Source: Desulfobacteraceae bacterium (GTDB taxonomy: Bacteria; Desulfobacterota; Desulfobacteria; Desulfobacterales; JAABTS01). Taken from it: a DNA stretch of 64,000 nucleotides. The notes beneath the pieces are model-generated. The model worked only from the letters and a program-made list of their open reading frames with translations. It searched no databases and was not told where the DNA came from. This document shows, piece by piece, positions 2,111 to 58,073 of the stretch (its first letter is position 1; every line of letters begins with the position of its first letter). The translations under genes were made by a program, and so were the position numbers. Location: positions 4,338 through 68,337 of the forward strand of contig JAABTS010000005.1 in the NCBI GenBank assembly GCA_011389735.1. Direction: 5' to 3'.

Positions 2111-2501
2111 TGAAACTGTAAACAAGAAATGAAGGATGCCGGATAACGTATTCACAATTTACCATTTCATCGCCTATGAAAAATCGTTATGAGCGCCGTA
2201 ACGCAACGTCTAATTCTCTCGCAATCTGAGCTCTATTGTAGAACAAGACTTCGAGTTTTTTTGAACCGGCGTTAGTCATTGATACATCATGGCGTGCGCC
2301 GGTTGAGCGATCAGCATTTGAAGGCATTGACAGTTGTTCACAATTTTCATGTTCGGAGACGGGATGGAACAACCGCCGCCGAACGGTTTTTTGAAGCGAA
2401 ACATATCGATCTGTTTGAGTGGTTGCTCGACAATATGGATTATCCAGCGCGTCCACGGAAACGGTTTGCTAAAGCGGCTTGACATGAAATGGCCGAAATA
2501 A

Positions 2502-2567
2502 ACTCACCGCAGAGGCGCAAAGTTCGCAGAGGTGGAATAAATCGACTGCTTTGCGTCTTTGTGAGAG
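2502..2567 (+). repeat. repeat family G (CACCGCAGAGGCGCA-type hairpin element)
   Basis: CTCACCGCAGAGGCGCAAAGTTCGCAGAGGTGGAATAAATCGACTGCTTTGCGTCTTTGTGAGAG. An inverted copy lies at 23468-23543. Confidence 0.7.
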
Positions 2568-2576
2568 ATATATTTT

Positions 2577-11210: not shown

Positions 11211-11345
11211 GTTGAATGCAAAAATGTTTATGTTGAATGCTAAATGTTAAATGCTAAATGGGAGGACTCACATTCAACATTCAACACCCAACATCCAACA
11301 TCCAACATCCAACATCCAACATTCAGCATTCAGCATTCAACATTC
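11211..11345. repeat. heptamer-periodic imperfect palindrome overlapping the stop codon of the 1810-aa gene
   Basis: Left arm has ATGYTRA-type units (11211-11260), the loop is GGAGGACTCA, and the right arm has about ten CAACATY/CAGCATT units (11271-11345). Confidence 0.8.
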
Positions 11346-21080: not shown

Positions 21081-21115
21081 GAATGAATCTCCCGGATTGA
21101 GTTGAACTGGCTTCT

Positions 21116-21218
21116 ATGGCTTTACAAAAATTAAATTTTTACCGCTTTGCCGGCCCTGGAACATGAACAGTATTTTATCCCGGCCCGCCGTCTTGTGAAA
21201 TGTAATTTCCGAAAACAT
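21116..21218 (-). repeat. REP-A copy (full, reverse orientation)
   Basis: ATGGCTTTACAAAAATTAAATTT..GCCGGCCCTGG..TATCCCGGCCCGCCGTCTTGTGAAATGTAATTTCCGAAAACAT. Confidence 0.75.
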
Positions 21219-21284
21219 ATTAAACATCTGATACCCGAATACGGGCGGTTTTGCAATAGCTTTGACGACTATTTTCAAAAAAAC

Positions 21285-21328
21285 ATCCGGGCCCGCCGGC
21301 TTTTGAAATTTAATTCCTGAAAAACTAT
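21285..21328 (-). repeat. REP-A fragment (one arm)
   Basis: ATCCGGGCCCGCCGGCTTTTGAAATTTAATTCCTGAAAAACTAT. Confidence 0.65.
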
Positions 21329-21447
21329 AATATGGGCCAAACATCTTAAACACGGATGAATACGGATGAACGTAAATGGATATTATCATTATAAAATCCA
21401 TATTTATCCGTGTCCATCCGCGCCGTGTACTGGCCGAAGATAGAACC

Positions 21448-21524
21448 AGGCGGCAGGCCTGGGATAATACTATTCGTATATCCCAGGCCGATAACGCAAT
21501 GAAATTTAATTTCTGGAAGACTAT
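21448..21524 (+). repeat. REP-A copy (lacks outer left arm)
   Basis: AGGCGGCAGGCCTGGGATAATACTATTCGTATATCCCAGGCCGATAACGCAATGAAATTTAATTTCTGGAAGACTAT. Confidence 0.8.
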
Positions 21525-21679
21525 CTTGTCGTTCGCTTTTTGATTTTTGTAATGACGAATTCTTCGTAAACGCTTGTATGCCGGAATAGTTTCAATCACG
21601 ATTTTCCGTTGATCCGCCCGTGAACAGTCATCCTGCCTGTTCAAACAGCCTTGAAGGTGCTCGCTCCGATTGCGAGAGA

Positions 21680-22264: not shown

Positions 22265-22837
22265 TTACCCGGACTCTTTTTTTTTGGTCTTTGGCTTATC
22301 GAATATTTCCCAGAGATCAATCCGGATTGCAATTGTAGAGAGCGAAAAAGATTCGTCCCAGTTGGTTATTTCAGGTTTTCCATATTCGCCTTGATCCAGG
22401 GTGTATTTTTCGATGTATTCCGCTTCCGGGAATACGATGATGTATTCATGGACGCCGGATTGTTCATACAGTTTTTTCTTTTCCCGTTTATCTTTCAGTT
22501 CCGTGGATGGGGAGGCGATTTCAATGATGAGATCCGGCGGGCCTTGAATGTTCAATTCAGTAATTTTGTTTTTTTCACACACCAGGAATACATCCGGTTG
22601 AACAACGTTATGTGTGTCAAAGACGACATCCGTGGGAGCGATTCCGGTGTAGCAGAGATTATTTGGATGTTCTTTCAATTTGATGTAAAGATTGCCTAAG
22701 ATATCCTGATGCTTTACGCGAGGCGCGGGGCTCATGTCGAAAATCACGCCGTCGATGATTTCACATCTTATATCATCCGGCCAGTTTTTATAATCTTCAT
22801 TTGTGTATTTGTCGTCTTTCGCGGCCGGCAAGCTCAT
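22265..22837 (-). CDS. Uma2-family (DUF820) putative endonuclease
   Basis: 190 aa. N-terminal YTNEDYKNWPDD.RCEIIDGVIFDMSPAP and core PDVFLV...PDLIIEIASPST match the Uma2/PD-(D/E)XK pattern. Confidence 0.75.
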   Translation of the reverse strand: MSLPAAKDDKYTNEDYKNWPDDIRCEIIDGVIFDMSPAPRVKHQDILGNLYIKLKEHPNNLCYTGIAPTDVVFDTHNVVQPDVFLVCEKNKITELNIQGPPDLIIEIASPSTELKDKREKKKLYEQSGVHEYIIVFPEAEYIEKYTLDQGEYGKPEITNWDESFSLSTIAIRIDLWEIFDKPKTKKKESG

Positions 22838-23013: not shown

Positions 23014-23451
23014 TCAACTTCCAACCAATCGCCTCAGTTCATCGATGTACGAATGAAAATCATTGATTGATTTTGCATTACCTCCGGAATATCTTGAAAC
23101 GCTTCCGGTGAAGGAGATCAAGCGGTATTTTTCCCGCGGGTTTTTTAAACTGAGTACAATTTGATAGGTTTCATAGCGAGAGTCTTTTAATGTACTTTCA
23201 TCGTATTTGGTGTCAATAGTGTCGATCCGGTCAAAGGGAATTGTTTTTTCGGATTTGATCCACCACAGCCACCGCGTCGAAATGTCGATACGGCGCAGCT
23301 TGCCATCCACTTCGACAGTCCGAAGATAAGAGAAAAGGCATATTATCTGATGAATCAGACTCGTTCTTGAATTAAGCGTCTTATCTTCCAACCATACTTT
23401 CGGCGTCATCAAAACCAGCCCTCCCGATTGAAATTGTGGGCCTGGTTCCAT
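23014..23451 (-). CDS. hypothetical protein
   Basis: ORF 23014..23499. The first 16 codons lie in a GCAGAGGCGCAGAG hairpin repeat, so the ATG at 23451 (MEPGPQFQ...) is preferred. No recognisable motif. Confidence 0.4.
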   Translation of the reverse strand: MEPGPQFQSGGLVLMTPKVWLEDKTLNSRTSLIHQIICLFSYLRTVEVDGKLRRIDISTRWLWWIKSEKTIPFDRIDTIDTKYDESTLKDSRYETYQIVLSLKNPREKYRLISFTGSVSRYSGGNAKSINDFHSYIDELRRLVGS

Positions 23452-23467
23452 TTCCGGCCAATATGTT

Positions 23468-23543
23468 TTCACCGCAGAGGCGCAGAGGACGCAGAGCATT
23501 TAATTGTTTTCACCTTTGCGAACTCTGCGTCTCTGCGGTGAGT
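23468..23543 (-). repeat. repeat family G copy
   Basis: The reverse complement GACTCACCGCAGAGACGCAGAGTTCGCAAAGGTGAAAACAATTAAATGCTCTGCGTCCTCTGCGCCTCTGCGGTGAA aligns with 2502-2567. Self-complementary arms. Confidence 0.7.
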
Positions 23544-23595
23544 CTATTCAACCGGCGGTGGCTGCCGAAGCTATAACCAGGCCCGAAATTGGGTT

Positions 23596-23731
23596 TGGTT
23601 ATAATTTCGGCTTTTTTAATAAAACCACGAAATAAACGAAACACACCAAAAAAATTTCATCAGTATTTTCATGTATTTCGTGGTAGTATCCAAAAACATA
23701 ATCGGCCGGTTTTCGAACCAACCCCGAGTAT
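23596..23731 (+). repeat. repeat family B copy, immediately 3' of tRNA-Arg
   Basis: 23617-23727 aligns with 28773-28891 (TAATAAAACCACGAAATAAACGAAAC...GTATTTCGTGGTAGTATCCAAAAACATAATCGGCCGGTTTT[C/T]GAACCAACCCCGA). Contains an 11-bp stem ACCACGAAATA/TATTTCGTGGT. Confidence 0.75.
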
Positions 23732-23743
23732 TGATATTATTGA

Positions 23744-23816
23744 TGCCCCCGGCAAGAATCGAACTTGCGGCGCATGGATTAGGAATCCAATGCTCTATCC
23801 ACTGAGCTACGGGGGC
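23744..23816 (-). tRNA. tRNA-Arg (anticodon CCT)
   Basis: The reverse complement folds as a 73-nt cloverleaf: acceptor GCCCCCG/CGGGGGC, D-arm GCTC/GAGC, anticodon loop TTCCTAA, T-arm GCAAG-TTCGATT-CTTGC, discriminator A. CCA is not encoded. Confidence 0.95.
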
Positions 23817-27681: not shown

Positions 27682-28692
27682 TTGAAAGAACCCGCCTTAT
27701 CGGATGAACAACTCGCCGGTCAACTTTTAATGGCCGGATTTCACGGAACGGAATTGAATTCCGGGCTCAAATTTTTTATCGATACGCTTCATATCGGCGG
27801 CGTGATCCTTTTTTCAAGAAATGTTGAATCCCCGGGGCAGTTACGGAGGTTATGCCGGTCTATTCAGGATTACGCGACAGGGAAAACGGGTTCGCCGTTG
27901 TTGATCGCGATTGACCAGGAAGGCGGCCGGGTCGCCCGGCTTCGGGCTCCGTTCACCGAATTTCCGGGGAACCCTTCGATGAGAGGGATCGAAGATGTAA
28001 AGCGGTTTGTGGAAATCACATCCAGGGAGCTTAAAACCGCCGGCGTTAACATGAATCTGGTTCCCGTGCTGGATGTGGCGCCCGGAGGGATCGACAGCGT
28101 TATGGCGGAAAGGGCTTTCGGCGCGGATCCCGCCTGGGCGTCGAAAATGGGATCTGAAATGATCCGGGGATATCAAGACCGGGGCGTCATTCCATGCGCC
28201 AAACATTTTCCGGGTATCGGGCGAACATCATTGGATTCCCACGAGGTAACGCCGTTCTCCGATCTTTCTTTGGAGGAACTTGAGAATTTCGAACTCGTCC
28301 CTTTCAAATCGGCGATAGCTCAAAACGTGGATTCCATCATGCTATCCCATGTGGTTTACCGCAAAATCGATCCGGATTGGCCGGCGAGTCTTTCCGTGGC
28401 CGTGTCATCCGGGCTTTTGAGAAAGCGGCTTGGATTTCAAGGCGTTATCCTTACCGACGATATCGAGATGGGCGCGATTAAGAAGCGGTTTGACATGAAC
28501 GTCGTTGTTCATCAATTCTTAATATCCGAAGCCGATATAATGCTTGTATGCCATGATCGATCTCTTGTGGAAAGCGTGTTCGGCGATATTGTGAAAGCGG
28601 CGAAAGACGATCCCGGTATTAAAGAAAAAATGGCGGCGTCCGTCAATCGAATTCGCCGTTTGAAAAAAATTCCACCGGCGCTGTTTGTATAG
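27682..28692 (+). CDS. nagZ: beta-N-acetylhexosaminidase NagZ (GH3)
   Basis: 336 aa, TTG start. GH3 motifs AGQLLMAGF, IDQEGGRV, KHFPGIGRTSLDSH, GVILTDDIEM. Confidence 0.85.
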   Translation: MKEPALSDEQLAGQLLMAGFHGTELNSGLKFFIDTLHIGGVILFSRNVESPGQLRRLCRSIQDYATGKTGSPLLIAIDQEGGRVARLRAPFTEFPGNPSMRGIEDVKRFVEITSRELKTAGVNMNLVPVLDVAPGGIDSVMAERAFGADPAWASKMGSEMIRGYQDRGVIPCAKHFPGIGRTSLDSHEVTPFSDLSLEELENFELVPFKSAIAQNVDSIMLSHVVYRKIDPDWPASLSVAVSSGLLRKRLGFQGVILTDDIEMGAIKKRFDMNVVVHQFLISEADIMLVCHDRSLVESVFGDIVKAAKDDPGIKEKMAASVNRIRRLKKIPPALFV

Positions 28693-28943
28693 CCTTTCAG
28701 AAATCGAATTTCACTGAGCCGCCGGCCCGGGATATAAGAATAGCAGGGCCTGGTTTTTAATTTAGGCCATTTTAATAAAACCACGAAATAAACGAAACGC
28801 ACGAAAAAATTTCATCTGTATTTTTGTTTATTTAGTGTATTTCGTGGTAGTATCCAAAAACATAATCGGCCGGTTTTTGAACCAACCCCGAATAGTATGA
28901 TCCCGGGAACGCCGTCTTGTGAAATTCAATTTCCGAAACCTGT
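28689..28943 (-). repeat. REP-A copy interrupted by a 152-bp insertion (repeat family B)
   Basis: Left part 28689-28743 and right part 28896-28943 join into a normal REP-A. The insert is bounded by GAATAG on both sides (28738-43 and 28890-95). Confidence 0.75.
28744..28895 (+). mobile_element. repeat family B copy inserted in REP-A; MITE-like, flanked by GAATAG duplication
   Basis: The host REP-A sequence is continuous once 28744-28895 is removed. Imperfect terminal inverted repeats (CAGGGCCTGGTTTTTAA vs the reverse complement CGGGGTTGGTTCAAAAA). No coding capacity. Confidence 0.55.
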
Positions 28944-29146
28944 TAGGGAAGTTACTGGAAATAAACTACCCAATATTGCGCTGAATTTTGGTTCGTATTC
29001 CGTGTTGTGTCAAGAGCGTGCATATTGAAATATTCACCTCTTGACGCAATACGGAATACGGGCCAAAAGGCAAGCAAGAGGGGTAGTTTATTTTCTGTGA
29101 CTTCCCTTATAATATATGGACGATTTAAAAGCACCGAGGTGAAGCC

Positions 29147-31426
29147 ATGAAAAAATTGAAACAATGGGTTCCTATAATCGCCGCCGTTATTATCGCTTTT
29201 GGTTCTATCAGCCTATACACCACGTCCAGCCGGCGGGATACGTTATTCAATCAACTGGAACTCAAGACAATTGATTTCCGTTTTCTACGGAGAGGGGAGA
29301 CGCCGCCGGGCGATGAAGTCATTCTGGCGGTTGTAGATGAAAAAAGCCTTGCAAAAGAGGGAAAATGGGTGTGGCCGAGGTCGAAGTTCGCCCGGCTCAT
29401 AGACATTCTTTCCGAAGAAGGGGCGTCCGTTATCGCGTTTGATATCGTTTTCGCCGAACCGGACAAAAACGACGATATTGTCATGAACGCCCTGGATCAG
29501 GTCGAAAATCACTATCTTGAACAAAAAAACGATGAAAACGGTTTTATCGATTACCTGAAACAACTGAAAAAGCGGGAAAATAACGACGAATTGCTTGCGG
29601 AGGCGATTCAGAATTCAAAAGCGGACATTGTGCTGGGGTATTATTTTGAGATGGAGGAACAGTCTTTTTTTGAACAGCATGAAATGGACGCGATGATTGA
29701 AAGAATCCAAAGTTCGAGGTACCGGGCGCCGCGTTGCCCTCCCGGAATGGAACCCGAACAGGTCATCAAAAAGGCCGTTGAAGCAGCGGCTTTCCCTCAA
29801 TCCAATATCAAGGCCATTTCAAATGCAAGCGAATACGCCGGTTTTTTTAATATGGCGCCGGACAAAGACGGTTCCGTGCGAAGAATGCCGTCTGTTTTTC
29901 GGTGTAGGGATTATATTTATCCGCCATTGTCATTGGTCGCCCTGAGCCGGTATATAAATTTTTCCATCAATATCAATTTCGTAAAAAACGAAATCGGCGA
30001 TCCCGTGGTCAACAATCTCGTAATAGGCGATAAAATGATCAAAACAACCCCCCGAGGCGAATTTTTTATCAATTACCGCGGCCCCTCCAAAACATTCAAG
30101 CACGTTTCCATTACGGACATTCTGCACCGGAATTTTTCGGAAGGCGTCTTCAAGGACAAAATCGTCATTGTGGGGGCCACGGCCATCGGAATATACGATG
30201 TCCGGGTGACGCCGTTCGAGGAGCTGTTTCCGGGAATGGAAGTTCACGCCAACATTATCGATATGATCCTTTCCGAAAACTTTTTAGGGGAACCGGACTG
30301 GCATGACTGGTTTATATGGGGGGTCATATTTTTCGCGGCGCTGGCGCTGGGCTTTCTACTGCCTCGAATCGGCGCAGTTCAGGGCGCGATAATGCCGGCC
30401 TGCTTGCTTTTCGGATACGCTTATCTCAGCCAATACCTGTTCAACCAGGGAATCGTGGTTAACACGGTATACCCTTTATTTTCCATACTGTTCACTTACT
30501 TCATCGTCACCATATATGTATATTTCACCGAATCCCGAAAAAAGATGTTCATTAAAAACGCCTTTTCGACTTACCTGGCGCCCTCCGTGGTCGACTATTT
30601 GATCGAATCGCCCGACAAGCTGGTGCTGGGGGGTGAAAACCGGGTTATCACCTCCTTTTTTTCGGACGTTCAGAATTTTACGATGATATCTGAAAAGCTG
30701 GCGCCGGAGGCGCTGGTGGAATTGCTGAACGAATTTTTGACCGAGATGACGGATATTATTCTGGAAAATAAAGGCACCGTGGATAAATTCGAAGGCGACG
30801 CCATTATTGCGTTTTTCGGGGCTCCCGTAGAACTGGAAAACCAGGCCGCTCTGGCCTGCTCGGCGGCGGTTCAAATGCAAAACCGGCTTTTTGAATTGCG
30901 CAAAAAGTGGGGCGCCGAAGGCAAACCCGAATTAAGAATGCGAGTCGGATTATACACCGGACCCGCCGTTGTCGGCAACATGGGTTCAAGAAACCGCATG
31001 GATTACACCATGATGGGCGATACGGTGAACACGGCGGCCAGGCTGGAAGGCGTAAACAAAATATACGGAACTTACATGCTGATCGGAGAAAGAACCCGTG
31101 ACGAAATAGATGAGAGCGTCTTCTTTATTCGGGAAATCGATTCCATTCTGGTGGTCGGGAAACAGAAGCCCATCGGTATTTATGAACTTGCGGGATTTCA
31201 AACGGACATCAGCGACGCGTTCAGGCGAACGGCGGAATTATATGCGGAAGGCGTGAACGCCTATAAACGCCGGGATTGGGATAAGGCTGTTTCATTGTTC
31301 AATCAGGGATTGGAACATACCCCCCACGATCCGCCTTCGAAAACCATGATCGAAAGATGTATCGAGTATAAGGCGAATCCGCCCGCTGAGGGATGGAGCG
31401 GCGTGTTTTACATGAAAACGAAATAA
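29147..31426 (+). CDS. CHASE2 sensor-domain class III adenylate/guanylate cyclase
   Basis: 759 aa. SD GAGGTGA. N-terminal TM, periplasmic CHASE2-like region and 3-4 TM helices. Cyclase core FFSDVQNFT...VDKFEGDAIIAFFGAP...GDTVNTAARLEG. TPR-like tail. Confidence 0.85.
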   Translation: MKKLKQWVPIIAAVIIAFGSISLYTTSSRRDTLFNQLELKTIDFRFLRRGETPPGDEVILAVVDEKSLAKEGKWVWPRSKFARLIDILSEEGASVIAFDIVFAEPDKNDDIVMNALDQVENHYLEQKNDENGFIDYLKQLKKRENNDELLAEAIQNSKADIVLGYYFEMEEQSFFEQHEMDAMIERIQSSRYRAPRCPPGMEPEQVIKKAVEAAAFPQSNIKAISNASEYAGFFNMAPDKDGSVRRMPSVFRCRDYIYPPLSLVALSRYINFSININFVKNEIGDPVVNNLVIGDKMIKTTPRGEFFINYRGPSKTFKHVSITDILHRNFSEGVFKDKIVIVGATAIGIYDVRVTPFEELFPGMEVHANIIDMILSENFLGEPDWHDWFIWGVIFFAALALGFLLPRIGAVQGAIMPACLLFGYAYLSQYLFNQGIVVNTVYPLFSILFTYFIVTIYVYFTESRKKMFIKNAFSTYLAPSVVDYLIESPDKLVLGGENRVITSFFSDVQNFTMISEKLAPEALVELLNEFLTEMTDIILENKGTVDKFEGDAIIAFFGAPVELENQAALACSAAVQMQNRLFELRKKWGAEGKPELRMRVGLYTGPAVVGNMGSRNRMDYTMMGDTVNTAARLEGVNKIYGTYMLIGERTRDEIDESVFFIREIDSILVVGKQKPIGIYELAGFQTDISDAFRRTAELYAEGVNAYKRRDWDKAVSLFNQGLEHTPHDPPSKTMIERCIEYKANPPAEGWSGVFYMKTK

Positions 31427-31556: not shown

Positions 31557-31584
31557 AGCACAGGCATCCTTCATCTGTCGGTTT

Positions 31585-31670
31585 ACACTTTTAAATCGGG
31601 ATCGCTATCGGGATCGCTATCGCTATCGAGAGCGAATTGTTTCGATCCCGATCCCGATCCCGACTTGGAA
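31585..31670. repeat. hexamer-periodic imperfect palindrome (CGGGAT/CGCTAT vs ATCCCG units)
   Basis: AATCGGGATCGCTATCGGGATCGCTATCGCTATCGAGAGCGAATTGTTTCGATCCCGATCCCGATCCCGAC, flanked by GTTTACAC...GTGTCAAC and outer GGCATCCTTCAT / ATGAAGGATGCC. Confidence 0.75.
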
Positions 31671-33175: not shown

Positions 33176-33370
33176 GCTGTTATTAAAGTATAAAAAGGAG
33201 GCTACGGCAAAAACACACCCGTCTTGCCTGCCTTATGATTCGTATTCCGGGTATCTGCAATGGATGCGGATTTCAATATGGTTCCATTGCGGCGCCTCGA
33301 AAATGCGAACAAAAATTCGGCGCATTACGGATAGTTTGTGTCCTTTAACCACCCTGAGTCAAAGTTATAC

Positions 33371-33472
33371 AGTTTTCCGGCAATTAAATTTCACTGCGTT
33401 GTCGGCCCGGGATATACGAACAGTATTATCCCGGGCTCGCCGCTTTGTGAAATTTAATTTCTGAAAACCTGT
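33371..33472 (-). repeat. REP-A copy (full, reverse)
   Basis: ..AATTAAATTTCACTGCGTTGTCGGCCCGGGATATACGAACAGTATTATCCCGGGCTCGCCGCTTTGTGAAATTTAATTTCTGAAAACCTGT. Confidence 0.85.
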
Positions 33473-34129
33473 AAGGACAGGCGCGCCGGGTTTTTCAAGA
33501 CCTGCCGCCCTTGAAACGTTCATACAGGCGAATGAAAATCAGTATGAAAGCCTTTTCCAGGGATTGAAACGCATCCAAAACGTTATCGGCGATATCGAAA
33601 GAATCGGAACCGGATACGCCATATCGTTTTTGACCCCCGGCGAAATATCCCTTATGCCCTTTTCATACATACAAAGTCAAGCATTTTAGGCAATGTGTGT
33701 CGGTATAGTTCCTTATTCCGAAGCCTTGTAATTTGAATATTCGAAAAGCGGATCGTGTTTAGTGAACACCCGGCAATGAAAATTCCATTTTTTAAATTGG
33801 TGAAAAAAGGGAGCTGTTACAGATAAAACCCCTTGACATACCGCAAATCTTCATATAACTAAGTACGTAAATTTCGTTGTGTGGCCCGCCAAAGGGAAAA
33901 GCACATTACAGATGTGTCTTTTTTTTCATGGTACAATTTCATTCTATGGTTATAGAAAAAATCGAAACCGCCTGCCGTTGAGGATTTTTCCTTCCATGCT
34001 GTTCAGGCAGTTTAACAAGTTCAAAAAAACAAGGAGTCTTGAAGAGCAATAACAGAGAGAACCTGATACGGCCTTTCAGACATTGAATTTCAGTGTGTTA
34101 TCGGATCGAAGATAAACGAGTTGTGTTAT

Positions 34130-34233
34130 AGGTTTTCAGAAAATGGATTTCATAAGGCGGCAGGCCGGGAATCATACTATTCGTATATCCAAGGCCGACA
34201 ACACAGTGAAATTCGATTTCCGGAAAGCTGTAT
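34130..34233 (+). repeat. REP-A copy (full)
   Basis: AGGTTTTCAGAAAATGGATTTCATAAGGCGGCAGGCCGGGAATCATACTATTCGTATATCCAAGGCCGACAACACAGTGAAATTCGATTTCCGGAAAGCTGTAT. Confidence 0.85.
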
Positions 34234-34245
34234 CTCCCCTTCTAT

Positions 34246-34347
34246 AGGTTTTCAGAAAATGGATTTCACAAGGCGGCGGGCCAGGTAGAATACTGTTAAT
34301 ATATCCCAGCCCGATAACGCAGTGAAATTTAATTTCCGGAAGGCTAT
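34246..34347 (+). repeat. REP-A copy (full), tandem to the previous one
   Basis: AGGTTTTCAGAAAATGGATTTCACAAGGCGGCGGGCCAGG...TATCCCAGCCCGATAACGCAGTGAAATTTAATTTCCGGAAGGCTAT. Confidence 0.85.
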
Positions 34348-34616
34348 ATTTTTCTAAAAAACTAATATTTGAAAACCTGATTGGATCGGCGATGCAGCAT
34401 TTCTTTTCGCCGGCGAAAAAATATCCGGGTTCGTTCTTCTTCCGGCATCGGCCTGACTATACAGATTTCCATCAGATAAGAATGGCGTTTTTTCGTCAGG
34501 TTTCCGCTTTATAATTCCAGAAGCGATCAGCTTTCCGAAAATCAAAGATTAATATCGATTATGCCGAATCGATATGGATTCCAAAAAATTCATATGATCA
34601 AGTGGGGTAATGGTAG

Positions 34617-53090: not shown

Positions 53091-53156
53091 TTTTAAAGGA
53101 TGGCAGATCTTAGAAACAAGCCCCTTTTAGTCGAACATTTAGCATGGGAGGGGAAC

Positions 53157-54767
53157 ATGTTTGAAGACCTTAATGCACTTGATTTTATAGTGTATATATC
53201 TTTGGTAGTTACAATTCTGTTATGCATCGTATTCCATGTAAAAAAACTATCAGCATATGAAAAACTTGGCAAAGAAGCCAAAAAGGCGATTGAATTAAAA
53301 AACGCAAACGAAAAGCTTAACGAAATAAACAATAAGCTCTCAAAATACCATAGGATCATCGACATAGATGAAGCCATCAAGGGAAAAAAGATTGAATTCA
53401 ATCAATATATAAAAACTGAAAAAGAAAAAATTGCAAATTTAAAAACAAAAGTAGATGAAGCCATCAGAGGAAAAAAGATTGAATTCAATCAATATGTAAA
53501 AACTGAAAAAGAAAAAATTGAACATTTTAAACAGAATGCTAAAATAGAAGCAACAAAATACATTGAAAACGCCAATAAAAAGGCAAAAGTAATAGCCGGT
53601 GATGCATGGGATGCAAAAACGAATGCAAAGCGATATAAAGATATTGCTAAAGCAATGCAAAACCAAATCAAAGGTTATGGAGACGAATACATAATACCTA
53701 ATCATACAACCATTGATGATCTTGCCGAAGAATATTCACACAAAGAAGCTGGCGAAGAATTAAAAAAAGCTCGAAAAAGGACAAAGGAATTAATTTTGAA
53801 AAATCGGGCTGCAGATTGCGATTATGTAGCCCCAAAACAAAGACAAAACGCATGCCATTTTGTCCTGTATGCTTTCAATGGGAAAGTTGATACTATTCTA
53901 TCAAAAACCAAATCAACCAATTACGGAAAACTTGATGCGGAAATTCAGGATGCATTTAAGTTGGTCAACCACAATGGTCATGTATTCAGAGAAGCACGTA
54001 TAACACTCGACTATCTGGAAGCCAGACGCAATGAATTGAAATGGGCAGTGGCTGTACAGGAGCTAAAGAGACAGGAACAAGAAGAACAAAAACGAATCCG
54101 GCAGGCAATGAGAGAAGAAGAAAAGGCGATGCGTGAAGTTGAAAAAGCCATAAGAGAATCCGAACAAGAAGAAAAGTTACTTCAAAAAGCCATGGAAAAA
54201 GCCAGAAAGGAACTTGAGACCGCATCGGAAGAACAGAGGACGAAGTTCGAAAAAGAATTGGAAGATCTACAGGCCAAACTCCAAGATGCTGAAGAAAAAA
54301 ACCAACGAGCTTTGTCAATGGCTCAGCAGACCAAACAAGGCCATGTATACGTCATCTCAAACATCGGTTCATTTGGGGAAAAAATTTATAAAATTGGTCT
54401 CACCCGTCGCCTTGATCCTATGGAACGTGTCAAGGAATTGGGTGATGCAAGCGTTCCGTTCAATTTTGATGTCCATGCCATGATGTTTCATGAGAATTCC
54501 CCGTGGCTGGAATCAGAACTTCATAACAAATTCAGAAAATCCGAATTGAACAAAATCAATCATAGAAAAGAGTTCTTCAATGTCAGTTTACAGGACATAA
54601 AAGACGCCTGTAAAGAAATCGGAATTGAAGTTAGATGGACTATGAAAGCCGAGGCCGCCGAATACAGGGAATCGTTATCATTGTTGAGAGAATCCGGGCA
54701 AGTGAACGATGAGTATGACATTGACATTTATGATGAAGAGGGCGAGCTTGAGGAGGTTTATTCATAA
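53157..54767 (+). CDS. DUF4041 + T5orf172 (GIY-YIG-superfamily, MUG113-like) domain protein with N-terminal TM helix and coiled coil
   Basis: The track start 53100 has no SD spacing; the ATG at 53157 follows GGGAGGGG. TM helix FIVYISLVVTILLCIVF. DUF4041-like core (GYGDEYIIPNHTTIDDLAEEYSH...FVLYAFNGKVD). Glu/Lys coiled coil. C-terminal T5orf172 motif GHVYVISN..IYKIGLTRRLDPMERVKELGDASVPFNFDVH. Confidence 0.8.
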   Translation: MFEDLNALDFIVYISLVVTILLCIVFHVKKLSAYEKLGKEAKKAIELKNANEKLNEINNKLSKYHRIIDIDEAIKGKKIEFNQYIKTEKEKIANLKTKVDEAIRGKKIEFNQYVKTEKEKIEHFKQNAKIEATKYIENANKKAKVIAGDAWDAKTNAKRYKDIAKAMQNQIKGYGDEYIIPNHTTIDDLAEEYSHKEAGEELKKARKRTKELILKNRAADCDYVAPKQRQNACHFVLYAFNGKVDTILSKTKSTNYGKLDAEIQDAFKLVNHNGHVFREARITLDYLEARRNELKWAVAVQELKRQEQEEQKRIRQAMREEEKAMREVEKAIRESEQEEKLLQKAMEKARKELETASEEQRTKFEKELEDLQAKLQDAEEKNQRALSMAQQTKQGHVYVISNIGSFGEKIYKIGLTRRLDPMERVKELGDASVPFNFDVHAMMFHENSPWLESELHNKFRKSELNKINHRKEFFNVSLQDIKDACKEIGIEVRWTMKAEAAEYRESLSLLRESGQVNDEYDIDIYDEEGELEEVYS

Positions 54768-56573: not shown

Positions 56574-57128
56574 ATGAAAACAAGACACGTTAAGGATTTG
56601 ATGGTTCCGTTGTCCGAATATGTGACCGTTCCGTGGTCGGCCAATCTATACGACGCCGTCATGGCGCTCGAAGAAGCCCAGCGGAGATTCAGCGGAGCGG
56701 GATATCGTCACAGGGCGGTAATTGTTCTGGACGAAAATGGAAAAGCCATCGGCAAGGTTAGTCAGTTGAATATTTTGCTCGCGCTGGAGCCCAAATATGC
56801 AAAAGTGGCCGAAAAAGGGTCGTTGACCCGGTTCGGATTCAGCAAACAATACCAAAAAACTCTCATGGATCAGTTCCGGCTATGGGATGAACCATTTAAC
56901 CACATTTGTGAAAAAGCCGCCAAAACGAAGGTGACGGAATTCATGTATTCTCCGAAGGAGGAGGAATGTGTGGAAGAGGATGCGTCTTTGAGCGAGGCGC
57001 TTCATCAACTGGTCATGGGGCGTCACCAATCCTTGATCGTAACCCGGAAGGGACAAATCGTCGGCATACTGAAACTGACCGACGTATTCATGGCGGTTTT
57101 TGAAATCATGGCGAGTTGTAGAATCTAA
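56574..57128 (+). CDS. CBS domain-pair protein
   Basis: 184 aa. SD AAGGAGG. Two CBS-like units (VKDLMVPL...VIVLDENGKAIGKVS; VTEFMYSP...LIVTRKGQIVGILKLTDV). Confidence 0.75.
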   Translation: MKTRHVKDLMVPLSEYVTVPWSANLYDAVMALEEAQRRFSGAGYRHRAVIVLDENGKAIGKVSQLNILLALEPKYAKVAEKGSLTRFGFSKQYQKTLMDQFRLWDEPFNHICEKAAKTKVTEFMYSPKEEECVEEDASLSEALHQLVMGRHQSLIVTRKGQIVGILKLTDVFMAVFEIMASCRI

Positions 57129-57195
57129 TAGTCCGCCGTCAAAAACGGCGCCTATTATCGATTCGCGGCGTCGTGATCCATTTCGACGGGACAGC

Positions 57196-57609
57196 ATGAT
57201 GACAGTTATTGATAATATGATTACGATCATTACAAACCATTACCCGGACGTTCAGGCGGCGTATCTTTTCGGAACCTGGGGAACCGAGAATGAAAAGCCG
57301 GACAGCGACGCCGATATAGCCATACTTCTGGAGCCCCGGCAGGCGAAAACGGTTCCTCCCCTGATTTTGAGCGATCTGCGAATTGAACTTGAAGATCTGC
57401 TGAAACAAACCGTGGATTTAATCAATTTGCGCCAGGTTCCGACCGTTCTTCAAAAGGAAGTTGTTGCAGCCGGACGAAGAATTCTCCTGGTAGATAAATT
57501 CGCGGCCGATCTTTTTGAAATGCTGACGATTTCATATTACCTCAAATTGAATGAAGAACGCGCTGAAATCATCAGGGATGGTCTTGAATCGGGGAGGTTC
57601 ATCGAATGA
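57196..57609 (+). CDS. mntA: MntA-type nucleotidyltransferase antitoxin (MNT of a HEPN/MNT pair)
   Basis: The ATG at 57196 is preferred over the track start 57100. NTase motif FGTWG...DSDADIAIL (G-S/T-x-n-DxD). Its stop overlaps the next start (ATGA). Confidence 0.8.
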   Translation: MMTVIDNMITIITNHYPDVQAAYLFGTWGTENEKPDSDADIAILLEPRQAKTVPPLILSDLRIELEDLLKQTVDLINLRQVPTVLQKEVVAAGRRILLVDKFAADLFEMLTISYYLKLNEERAEIIRDGLESGRFIE

Positions 57610-58073
57610 TGGACGACGTCGCATTGAATAAAAAGGAGAGCATTGAACGATGCATAAAACAGATCCGTCTGTATTATGCATCGCCGAGTGAAGAACCTTT
57701 TGAAACCGATTGTTTCAAACAGGACGCTATCGCCGCAAACTTACAGCGCGTATGCGAACAATGCATCGATCTGGCGAATCATACAATTAAAGTCAAGAAA
57801 CTCGGTCTTCCCAAGGAAACCAGGGAAAGCTTCCGGTTGCTCGCACAAAATGAAGTTATCCCGAAAAATCTGGGCGCGAATCTCGAAAAAATGGTCGGAT
57901 TCCGAAATACGCTGGTTCATCAATATCAAAATATCGATATAAAATTGATGATCGATGTCATCGAAAATCACCTGGACGAATTGATCGATTATACGAATTA
58001 TGTAATCAAGGAAGTATGTCAGTTATCCAGATCGTCAAAACCGGGCGCTGTTCCGGAACCGTCGAAATCCTGA
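57606..58073 (+). CDS. hepT: HepT-type HEPN (DUF86) ribonuclease toxin
   Basis: 155 aa. R-x4-H HEPN motif in GFRNTLVHQY. Coupled to the upstream MNT gene. Confidence 0.8.
   Translation: MMDDVALNKKESIERCIKQIRLYYASPSEEPFETDCFKQDAIAANLQRVCEQCIDLANHTIKVKKLGLPKETRESFRLLAQNEVIPKNLGANLEKMVGFRNTLVHQYQNIDIKLMIDVIENHLDELIDYTNYVIKEVCQLSRSSKPGAVPEPSKS

Follow-up and report, generated by a model that had tools for sequence, protein, structure and literature searches.

What interrupts the palindromic repeat that lies downstream of a nagZ-like gene in this Desulfobacteraceae bacterium, and did it arrive there by transposition? The locus is part of a 64-kb stretch of contig JAABTS010000005.1 (assembly GCA_011389735.1), which was analysed over its full 64,000 nucleotides and is referred to here as the window. 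The original prediction, made from the nucleotide sequence, held that one copy of a repeat termed REP-A had been split by a 152-bp non-coding insert of a second family, family B, that the hexamer GAATAG was duplicated at the two junctions, and that family B is or was mobile. The view that a non-coding element is nested in REP-A, with a target duplication flanking it, and was hence mobile at some time, is supported by the results. The element, designated B1, is quite probably a non-autonomous transposon of the kind known in bacteria as a MITE (miniature inverted-repeat transposable element).

Removal of positions 28744-28895 was expected to restore a REP-A copy, and this was borne out when the two halves were joined and aligned. 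The joined sequence is 114 nt long, and its positions 1-111 match one intact REP-A copy (33365-33476) in a gapless alignment with 78.6% identity and E 2e-21; about 10 other uninterrupted copies in the window also align with it. The repeat breaks off after ...GGGATATAAGAATAG and continues from TATGATCCCGGG... at 28896, and the restored REP-A is a full-length, in-register palindrome. A multiple alignment of 12 copies gave the central consensus GGGATATACGAAYAGTATTATCCC, which contains a single GAATAG, and the copies at 34232, 21524 and 52822 read exactly GAATAGTA. When the fold of the restored REP-A is predicted, this octamer makes up the apical loop; in that model, the insert occupies the apical loop of the REP-A hairpin. 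The filled site is predicted to fold into a three-tier nested hairpin of -77 kcal/mol. An empty site and a filled site can also be compared within one window, as had been claimed, with the roughly 10 uninterrupted paralogous copies serving as the empty sites.

The GAATAG hexamer is indeed present at both junctions (Table 1). Since each REP-A loop carries a single GAATAG, the second one at the filled site is extra, and the suspicion that the repeat merely reflects the REP-A loop consensus fails. When read as 8-mers abutting the terminal inverted repeats (TIRs), the flanks of B1 are GAATAGCA and GAATAGTA, which agree at 7/8 positions. For a related element, designated C, the flanking hexamer is GAAATT (23430-23435 and 23585-23590, 6/6), placed just as GAATAG is on the two sides of B1; as 8-mers, these flanks are GAAATTGT and GAAATTGG (7/8). 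The chance of such matches was estimated from 200,000 random position pairs in the window, which gave 6.7e-4 for a match of at least 7/8 and 3.7e-4 for identity of the first six positions. The joint chance of two flanks matching at 7/8 or better is approximately 1e-6. The duplications are derived from the target rather than from the element because those of B1 and C differ and that of B1 equals the loop of its host repeat.

A discrete insert was thus confirmed, although the element proper measures 144 bp from TIR to TIR and not 152 bp. This is within the size usual for MITEs, which is less than 200-400 bp, and no open reading frame (ORF) of at least 40 amino acids is contained within it. The imperfect inverted repeats described at its ends are present, with an alignment that shifts by 1 nt, and match at 8/10 positions (GGGCCTGGTT versus GGGGTTGGTT). 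The 11-bp internal stem is exact (ACCACGAAATA at 28780-28790 and TATTTCGTGGT at 28838-28848) and extends into 38-nt arms. At each terminus, the TIR can also pair with an adjacent internal complement to give a small subterminal hairpin. The left hairpin, which follows the nagZ-like gene, resembles a terminator on the plus strand; the right hairpin resembles one on the minus strand, where two G-T pairs become C-A mismatches if the plus strand is read. The two terminator-like hairpins point inward on both strands; a consensus scan found two such terminator patterns against 0.9 expected, which is not above shuffled sequence. The long hairpin folds with z between -3.0 and -4.6 over both B copies and both strands (-3.0 and -4.1 for B1).

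The right-end hairpin also accounts for a T-arm-like motif that had been noted on the minus strand. The string is present, but a hairpin of 8 bp with a loop of 4 nt (28868-28887), in which the right TIR pairs with its internal complement, is the better reading. Its loop, TTCRAAA, lacks conservation, being CCATTT at the homologous end of C, and the string is unlike the 3' half of the adjacent tRNA-Arg. A tRNA-derived origin, as in short interspersed elements (SINEs), had been offered as speculation and is not supported: ARAGORN found only the tRNA-Arg at 23744-23816, and no tRNA match was obtained with Rfam at E<=10 across 28600-29150. Rfam 15 yielded no family match of any other kind, and the only hits were chance matches of hairpins to miRNA models, far below gathering scores.

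B1 is one of three intact members (B1, B2 and C) in the window, where two decayed members were also found. Homology between B1 and B2 starts no more than 2 nt from the point where REP-A breaks off on the left and reaches the right break, and because it ends at these break points, the repeated unit is the same unit that interrupts REP-A. The mobility proposed for family B was thereby upheld, both by this second locus with the same boundaries and by the different duplication that C carries on its own account. The TIRs of B2 are GGGTTTGGTT and GGGGTTGGTT (9/10), and those of C are GGGCCTGGTT and AACCAGGCCC (10/10). C shares the outer shell of B, with GGGCCTGGTTATAGCTTCGGC in C corresponding to GGGTTTGGTTATAATTTCGGC in B2 and AAAACATATTGGCCGGAAATGGAACCAGGCCC in C to AAAACATAATCGGCCGGTTTTTGAACCAACCCC in B1; the core unit of C is CACC GCAGAGGC GCAGAGGAC GCAGAG. 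The shell similarity is missed by blastn-short by itself, and its homology rests on local alignment with shuffling: the B-C alignments beat 5,000/5,000 shuffles at both ends (p<2e-4), whereas the wrong pairing of ends gave p=0.43. Family B thus represents one type of core within a broader family defined by the shell. The terminal pattern GGGNNTGGTT occurs at six sites in 64 kb against 2.1 expected, and every one of them is a terminus of B1, B2 or C that faces inward, at spacings of 135-147 bp.

C and B2 lie head to head and are separated by GAAATT alone (23438-23816 region). The right TIR of B2 ends 18 nt 3' of the tRNA-Arg(CCT) gene, which is on the minus strand, and the minus-strand hairpin of B2 is placed where the terminator of that gene would be expected. 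Element D abuts a truncated REP-A; this copy (21445-21524) is without its outer left arm where D adjoins it. A core near 2,500 was at first taken for a solo copy with no shell, and this was rejected when alignment identified it as a decayed shell copy. Outside the window, an exact 22-mer of B had no matches in genome-contig or metagenome-contig collections. In viral contigs, the right-end shell 25-mer had no match, and a single match to the shell was discarded as a chance match in high-GC coding sequence.

The MITE reading follows from the small size, the lack of an ORF, the TIRs, the variable duplications, the several copies, the stem-loop and the paralogous empty sites, which are the defining signatures of MITEs (Delihas, 2011; PMC3184786). 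REP sequences are also documented hot spots for insertion sequences (IS) (Tobes and Pareja, 2006, PMC1525189; PMC3184786). In such a scheme, a transposase encoded elsewhere in the genome would recognize the 10-bp TIRs (consensus GGGCCTGGTT), and probably also the small hairpin beside each end. The target of the 144-bp unit would have been a REP-A palindrome already in place, at its A/T-rich apical loop GAATAGTA; the cuts in the two target strands would be offset by 6-8 bp, and gap repair would leave the flanking GAATAG(TA) duplication. The enzyme acting in trans would probably be of the DDE type that makes staggered cuts; both this class and a parent IS are inferred, as is any preference for the loops of extruded palindromes or for A/T-rich 8-mers beginning with GAA. 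The insertion is probably old, given a difference of 16% between B1 and B2 and mismatches within the TIRs. The nesting gives a datable order of events, with REP-A present first and the shell element second. ISAs1 elements have CAGGG ends and duplications of 8-10 bp, and ISL3, IS6 and IS1595 elements have GG ends and duplications of 8 bp; no assignment of B1 to an IS family is made on these features.

Several observations weigh against this reading. No transposase, recombinase or RAYT domain was detected among the 47 ORFs of the window scanned with Pfam, and neither an IS with these TIRs nor further copies of the TIRs were found in the 64 kb, so the autonomous partner that the original prediction proposed to look for is not within the window. 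Only three intact members are visible there. The expectation that other copies would carry both TIRs and duplications held for C in the window and failed in part for B2, which has TIRs without a clean duplication (flanking 8-mers CCGAAATT and GAGTATTG, 3/8); B2 is the most decayed copy, and C has inserted at its very end. The duplication itself may be 6 bp with two stray nucleotides at one end, or, in both B1 and C, 8 bp of which one position was substituted later; if it is 8 bp, the element becomes symmetric. No orthologous REP-A site from a close relative was present in the collections, in which the nearest NagZ homologue is 55% identical, and a locus search based on NagZ returned homologues of no more than 43% identity. 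Finally, subterminal hairpins at both ends are a feature of elements of the HUH type, such as IS200/IS605 and REPINs.

That last feature raises the alternative that B1 is akin to REPINs or PATEs and was mobilized in single-stranded form by an HUH/Y1 transposase (RAYT or the TnpA of IS200/IS605). The enzyme would then recognize the subterminal hairpins, and the flanking hexamers would be a target or cleavage motif instead of a duplication left by staggered cuts. A small palindrome at each end, in inverted orientation, within a long hairpin is the layout of a REPIN (PMC3116915). The G-T pairing of the right-end hairpin on one strand only would also suit such an enzyme, and in B1, B2 and C alike the flank begins with GA after the CCC end. 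Yet the flanking repeats differ between B1 and C, and that of B1 is the REP-A loop, which marks them as target-derived and not as products of an HUH enzyme; moreover, this route predicts neither the genuine TIRs nor a duplication. In REP sequences and REPINs, one end of the palindrome bears a conserved tetranucleotide, GTAG or CGTC (PMC3733652), whereas neither tag stands beside the terminal hairpins here, and no ORF of the Y1_Tnp type was found among those scanned. Transposition by an HUH enzyme is accordingly considered unlikely. Integration of a circular form of B by a tyrosine or serine recombinase, through a shared core of 6-8 bp, is a still weaker candidate and is regarded as improbable. 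The junction identity of 6-8 bp would resemble the cores of attL and attR, and B2 lies close to the 3' end of tRNA-Arg, tRNA genes being a classic region of integration. But B2 is outside the tRNA and lacks a counterpart of the core on the opposite flank, the cores would have to differ between related elements (GAATAG versus GAAATT), a TIR architecture is unexpected for att sites, and no recombinase gene was found nearby among the scanned ORFs.

It might also be argued that nothing was ever transposed here, and that local duplication, gene conversion or remodelling of palindromes produced the arrangement, with the GAATAG repeat due to chance or slippage. Few copies are visible, the genome is rich in nested palindromes, and GAATAG is part of the REP-A loop consensus. 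Against this stand the unit with identical boundaries in an unrelated context 5 kb away, the separate and different duplication of C, the single GAATAG in REP-A loops, and the joint chance given above, and this explanation is the least credible of those weighed. A different matter is whether the element has been kept or co-opted as a functional RNA or DNA signal, for example as a bidirectional terminator, a stabilizer in the 3' untranslated region (UTR) or a carrier of the core unit, which would be compatible with a mobile origin; the core unit of about 28 nt may itself be the selected part. The inward-facing terminator-like hairpins on both strands, the minus-strand hairpin of B2 that follows tRNA-Arg, the match of one core arm to a unit found across phyla while the opposite arm is degenerate, and the placement of many phage-contig units just past stop codons (see below) agree with such a role. 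The terminator matches do not exceed those in shuffled sequence, no Rfam family matches, and the canonical arm of C is antisense to the neighbouring genes; a functional signal is rated as having only a slim chance, a little below that of the HUH route. Transposition as a MITE remains the favoured explanation.

The cores inside the shell extend beyond this genome. B, C and D share the shell and have different central hairpins built on one plan, in which each arm consists of the prefix (A/C)ACC and three purine-rich sub-repeats of about 9 nt (e.g. ACGAAA, GCAGAGG or ACGGATG). The unit shared across phyla is matched by one arm of the core in B and likewise in C, the other arm being degenerate. 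A 19-mer of the B arm matched eight soil-metagenome contigs, with identity extending to 27-29 nt; the B unit, AACCACGAAATAAACGAAAC(A/G)CACGAAA (28779-28806 and 23623-23650 in the window), is present in these contigs (L006, L010, L021, L025 and L027-L030) solo or as hairpins, beside unrelated ordinary genes. In L029, a unit of the ACGAAA type is paired in inverted orientation with one of the GCAGAG type, and in L025 an ACGAAA-type unit lies just upstream of an MNT-HEPN pair. Similarly, the C-arm 27-mer CACCGCAGAGGCGCAGAGGACGCAGAG (23470-23496 in the window) was found exactly in seven IMG/VR loci, which represent five distinct contexts with GC of 0.51-0.66, and a slightly degenerate pattern of it added four IMG/VR contigs (L033-L039 and L043-L046 overall). 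The units are in at least nine distinct phage-like contigs, five of which carry the exact 27-mer of the window. There, each unit is discrete, running TTCACC...GCAGAG between flanks that are unrelated; most are solo, and a contig often has several on one strand. For 9/15 of them, a co-oriented open frame of at least 100 codons ends 2-21 nt before the unit starts. One contig (L044) has GCAGAGG-type and ACGGATG-type units side by side. Units occur solo, in tandem or as inverted pairs, and since the inverted pairs in L046 and L029 are of different, non-complementary types, the hairpin is not always formed.

Perfect hairpins of the same plan, GAACC(GCAGAGGAC)3...GGTTC with ACAGAGG and ACGGAGG variants, are found in at least 79 places on two megaplasmids of approximately 1 Mb in Gemmatirosa kalamazoonensis (L041/L042, plasmid 1, 278080-278180; and NZ_CP007130.1). 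The variants alter both arms together, and the variant sub-repeats were out of pairing register in the copy examined. A Sphingobium megaplasmid carries one such hairpin (L040). No Rfam family matches the core units, and full-text literature searches with the unit sequences returned nothing relevant. Inspection by eye detected no duplication around the core hairpin inside the shell, so the core cannot be claimed as a separate nested insertion. Tentatively, the shell may be only a carrier, and the core arms may represent an undescribed class of units of about 28 nt, either a very small mobile element or a conserved post-stop or 3'-UTR signal recognized by a widespread protein; this is a possibility that we hold with reserve. 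If they are confirmed as a cross-phylum family, these units would be among the smallest non-coding modules widely shared by bacteria and phages, and their position past stop codons suggests a testable function. A MITE nested in a REP-like palindrome is a known kind of event and of modest interest by itself, while more is to be gained from pursuing the shell that is shared by interchangeable cores, and the cross-phylum units. The nested case also aids annotation of a repeat-rich uncultured Desulfobacterales genome and a search for the transposase by way of the TIRs.

Table 1. Coordinates of the REP-A host site, element B1 and related elements in the 64-kb window
Feature	Position	Strand	Remarks
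REP-A left half (host palindrome)	28685-28743		Aligns to positions 1-59 of intact REP-A copies
REP-A right half	28896-28950		Aligned to intact copies
Left duplication copy, GAATAG (28738-28743) or 8-mer GAATAGCA	28738-28745		
Right duplication copy, GAATAG (28890-28895) or 8-mer GAATAGTA	28890-28897		Native REP-A loop sequence
Element B1, 144 bp	28746-28889	+	No own ORF; one long imperfect hairpin
B1 left TIR, GGGCCTGGTT	28746-28755		
B1 right TIR, AACCAACCCC (reverse complement GGGGTTGGTT)	28880-28889		
Left subterminal hairpin, GGCCTGG/TTAGGCC then ATTTTAAT	28747-28768	+	Pattern match only
Right subterminal hairpin, GGTTGGTT-CAAA-AACCGGCC then GATTATGTTT	28868-28887	-	Pattern match
Central core hairpin, arms 28770-28807 and 28821-28858	28770-28858		74% complementary; perfect 11-bp stem inside
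B-type unit of about 28 nt, AACC ACGAAATAA ACGAAACGC ACGAAA, left core arm	28779-28806	+	Same unit in soil-metagenome contigs
Element B2	23591-23725	+	84% identical to B1 over 150 aligned positions
Element C	23438-23584	-	B outer shell reversed; perfect 10-bp TIRs; different core
Element D, partial fourth member	21334-21453	-	One shell end CCGCCTGGTTCTATCTTCGGC; third core type with ACGGATGAA sub-repeats
Decayed C-type copy	2459-2570	+	Core and part of shell recognizable; outer TIR degenerate

The genes around B1 encode a YceG/MltG protein, the NagZ-like beta-N-acetylhexosaminidase of family GH3 (27682-28692) and a CHASE2 adenylate/guanylate cyclase (29147-31426), the last two being separated by a 454-bp spacer. 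Farther away are genes for the CCA-adding enzyme, rho, prfA-prmC, rpsB-tsf-pyrH-frr-uppS-cdsA-dxr-rseP and purL. This gene content is that of an ordinary chromosomal region, here from an uncultured lineage of the Desulfobacterales. One NCBI protein matches the NagZ-like protein at 100% identity, and its next relatives are at most 55% identical; those with names are mostly from metagenome-assembled genomes of Desulfobacterales, with Desulfonema at 52%. The stop codon of the nagZ-like gene (TAG, 28690-28692) falls within the opening bases TATAG of REP-A (28685-28692 region), and REP-A therefore abuts or supplies the 3' end of this ORF. Directly downstream of the filled REP-A is a second nested palindrome (28945-29107), whose outer arms AGGGAAGTTACTGGAAATAAACTACCC and GGGTAGTTTATTTTCTGTGACTTCCCT are 89% complementary and enclose an inner hairpin (28986-29068) with ATACGG sub-repeats in its arms. 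The 454-bp spacer is almost wholly occupied by repeats.

Elsewhere in the window, REP-A copies form tandem and truncated or rearranged clusters at 21112-21530 and 34065-34350. Hairpins with arms of short tandem sub-repeats, namely ATCGGN hexamers and GCTAAAT/CATTCAG heptamers, are located at 2022-2110, 31581-31669 and 11230-11343, and sub-repeated hairpin arms are a general trait of the intergenic DNA of this genome. An 80-nt direct repeat (93% identical, 87-nt spacing) lies at 53365-53531 within an ORF (53100-54767) that has T5orf172/MUG113 and DUF4041 domains. A toxin-antitoxin pair of the nucleotidyltransferase/HepT-like (MNT-HEPN) type and a gene for a putative endonuclease of the Uma2 family are found at 57100-58073 and 22265-22837.

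Among known systems, B1 most resembles the bacterial MITEs, such as Nezha of cyanobacteria, Chunjie of Geobacter, Correia/NEMIS of Neisseria and MITEAba12, which are also shorter than 200 bp and have no transposase gene (PMC3184786). TIRs, a target duplication, an intergenic place and a long stem-loop are common to them and B1 (PMC3184786). It differs from them in that no parent IS matching its TIR GGGCCTGGTT was found, in a duplication of 6-8 bp, and in belonging to a shell family with interchangeable central hairpins made of three sub-repeats of about 9 nt. Insertion into a repetitive extragenic palindrome is shared with the REP-targeting IS elements (IS1397/ISKpn1, ISPpu9/10, ISPsy8, ISPa11 and IS621), of which IS1397 inserts into the REP loop, as B1 does in REP-A (PMC3184786; PMC1525189). 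Those elements are autonomous and have their own transposase, whereas B1 is a 144-bp non-coding unit. Insertion into a REP-A loop is a single case here, and the other confirmed target, that of C, adjoins the end of another family member.

REPINs, which are mobilized by RAYTs, likewise consist of two inverted small terminal palindromes with a spacer that together form a long hairpin (PMC3116915). B1 departs from them in having no GTAG or CGTC tag, true TIRs and a target duplication, and no RAYT gene was found in the window. Also, the PATE elements derived from IS200/IS605 have subterminal hairpins without TIRs or a target duplication, while B1 has hairpins together with both. In the BOX elements of Streptococcus pneumoniae, the outer modules are conserved and pair mutually, while the module between them varies. 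Their modular plan is like that of the shell family, although the sequences are unrelated and the inner module here is a hairpin of the cross-phylum units. For the core units only, a comparison may be made with the small dispersed repeats (SDRs, 21-27 nt) of Nostoc, reportedly described by Elhai and colleagues in 2008 (a study cited in PMC3116915), which are said to be intergenic and often nested in or beside other repeats and hairpins. Both are discrete intergenic repeats of less than 30 nt with different sequences, and the core units are distinguished from SDRs by the NACC prefix, the three sub-repeats of about 9 nt, and their occurrence in several phyla and in phage contigs.

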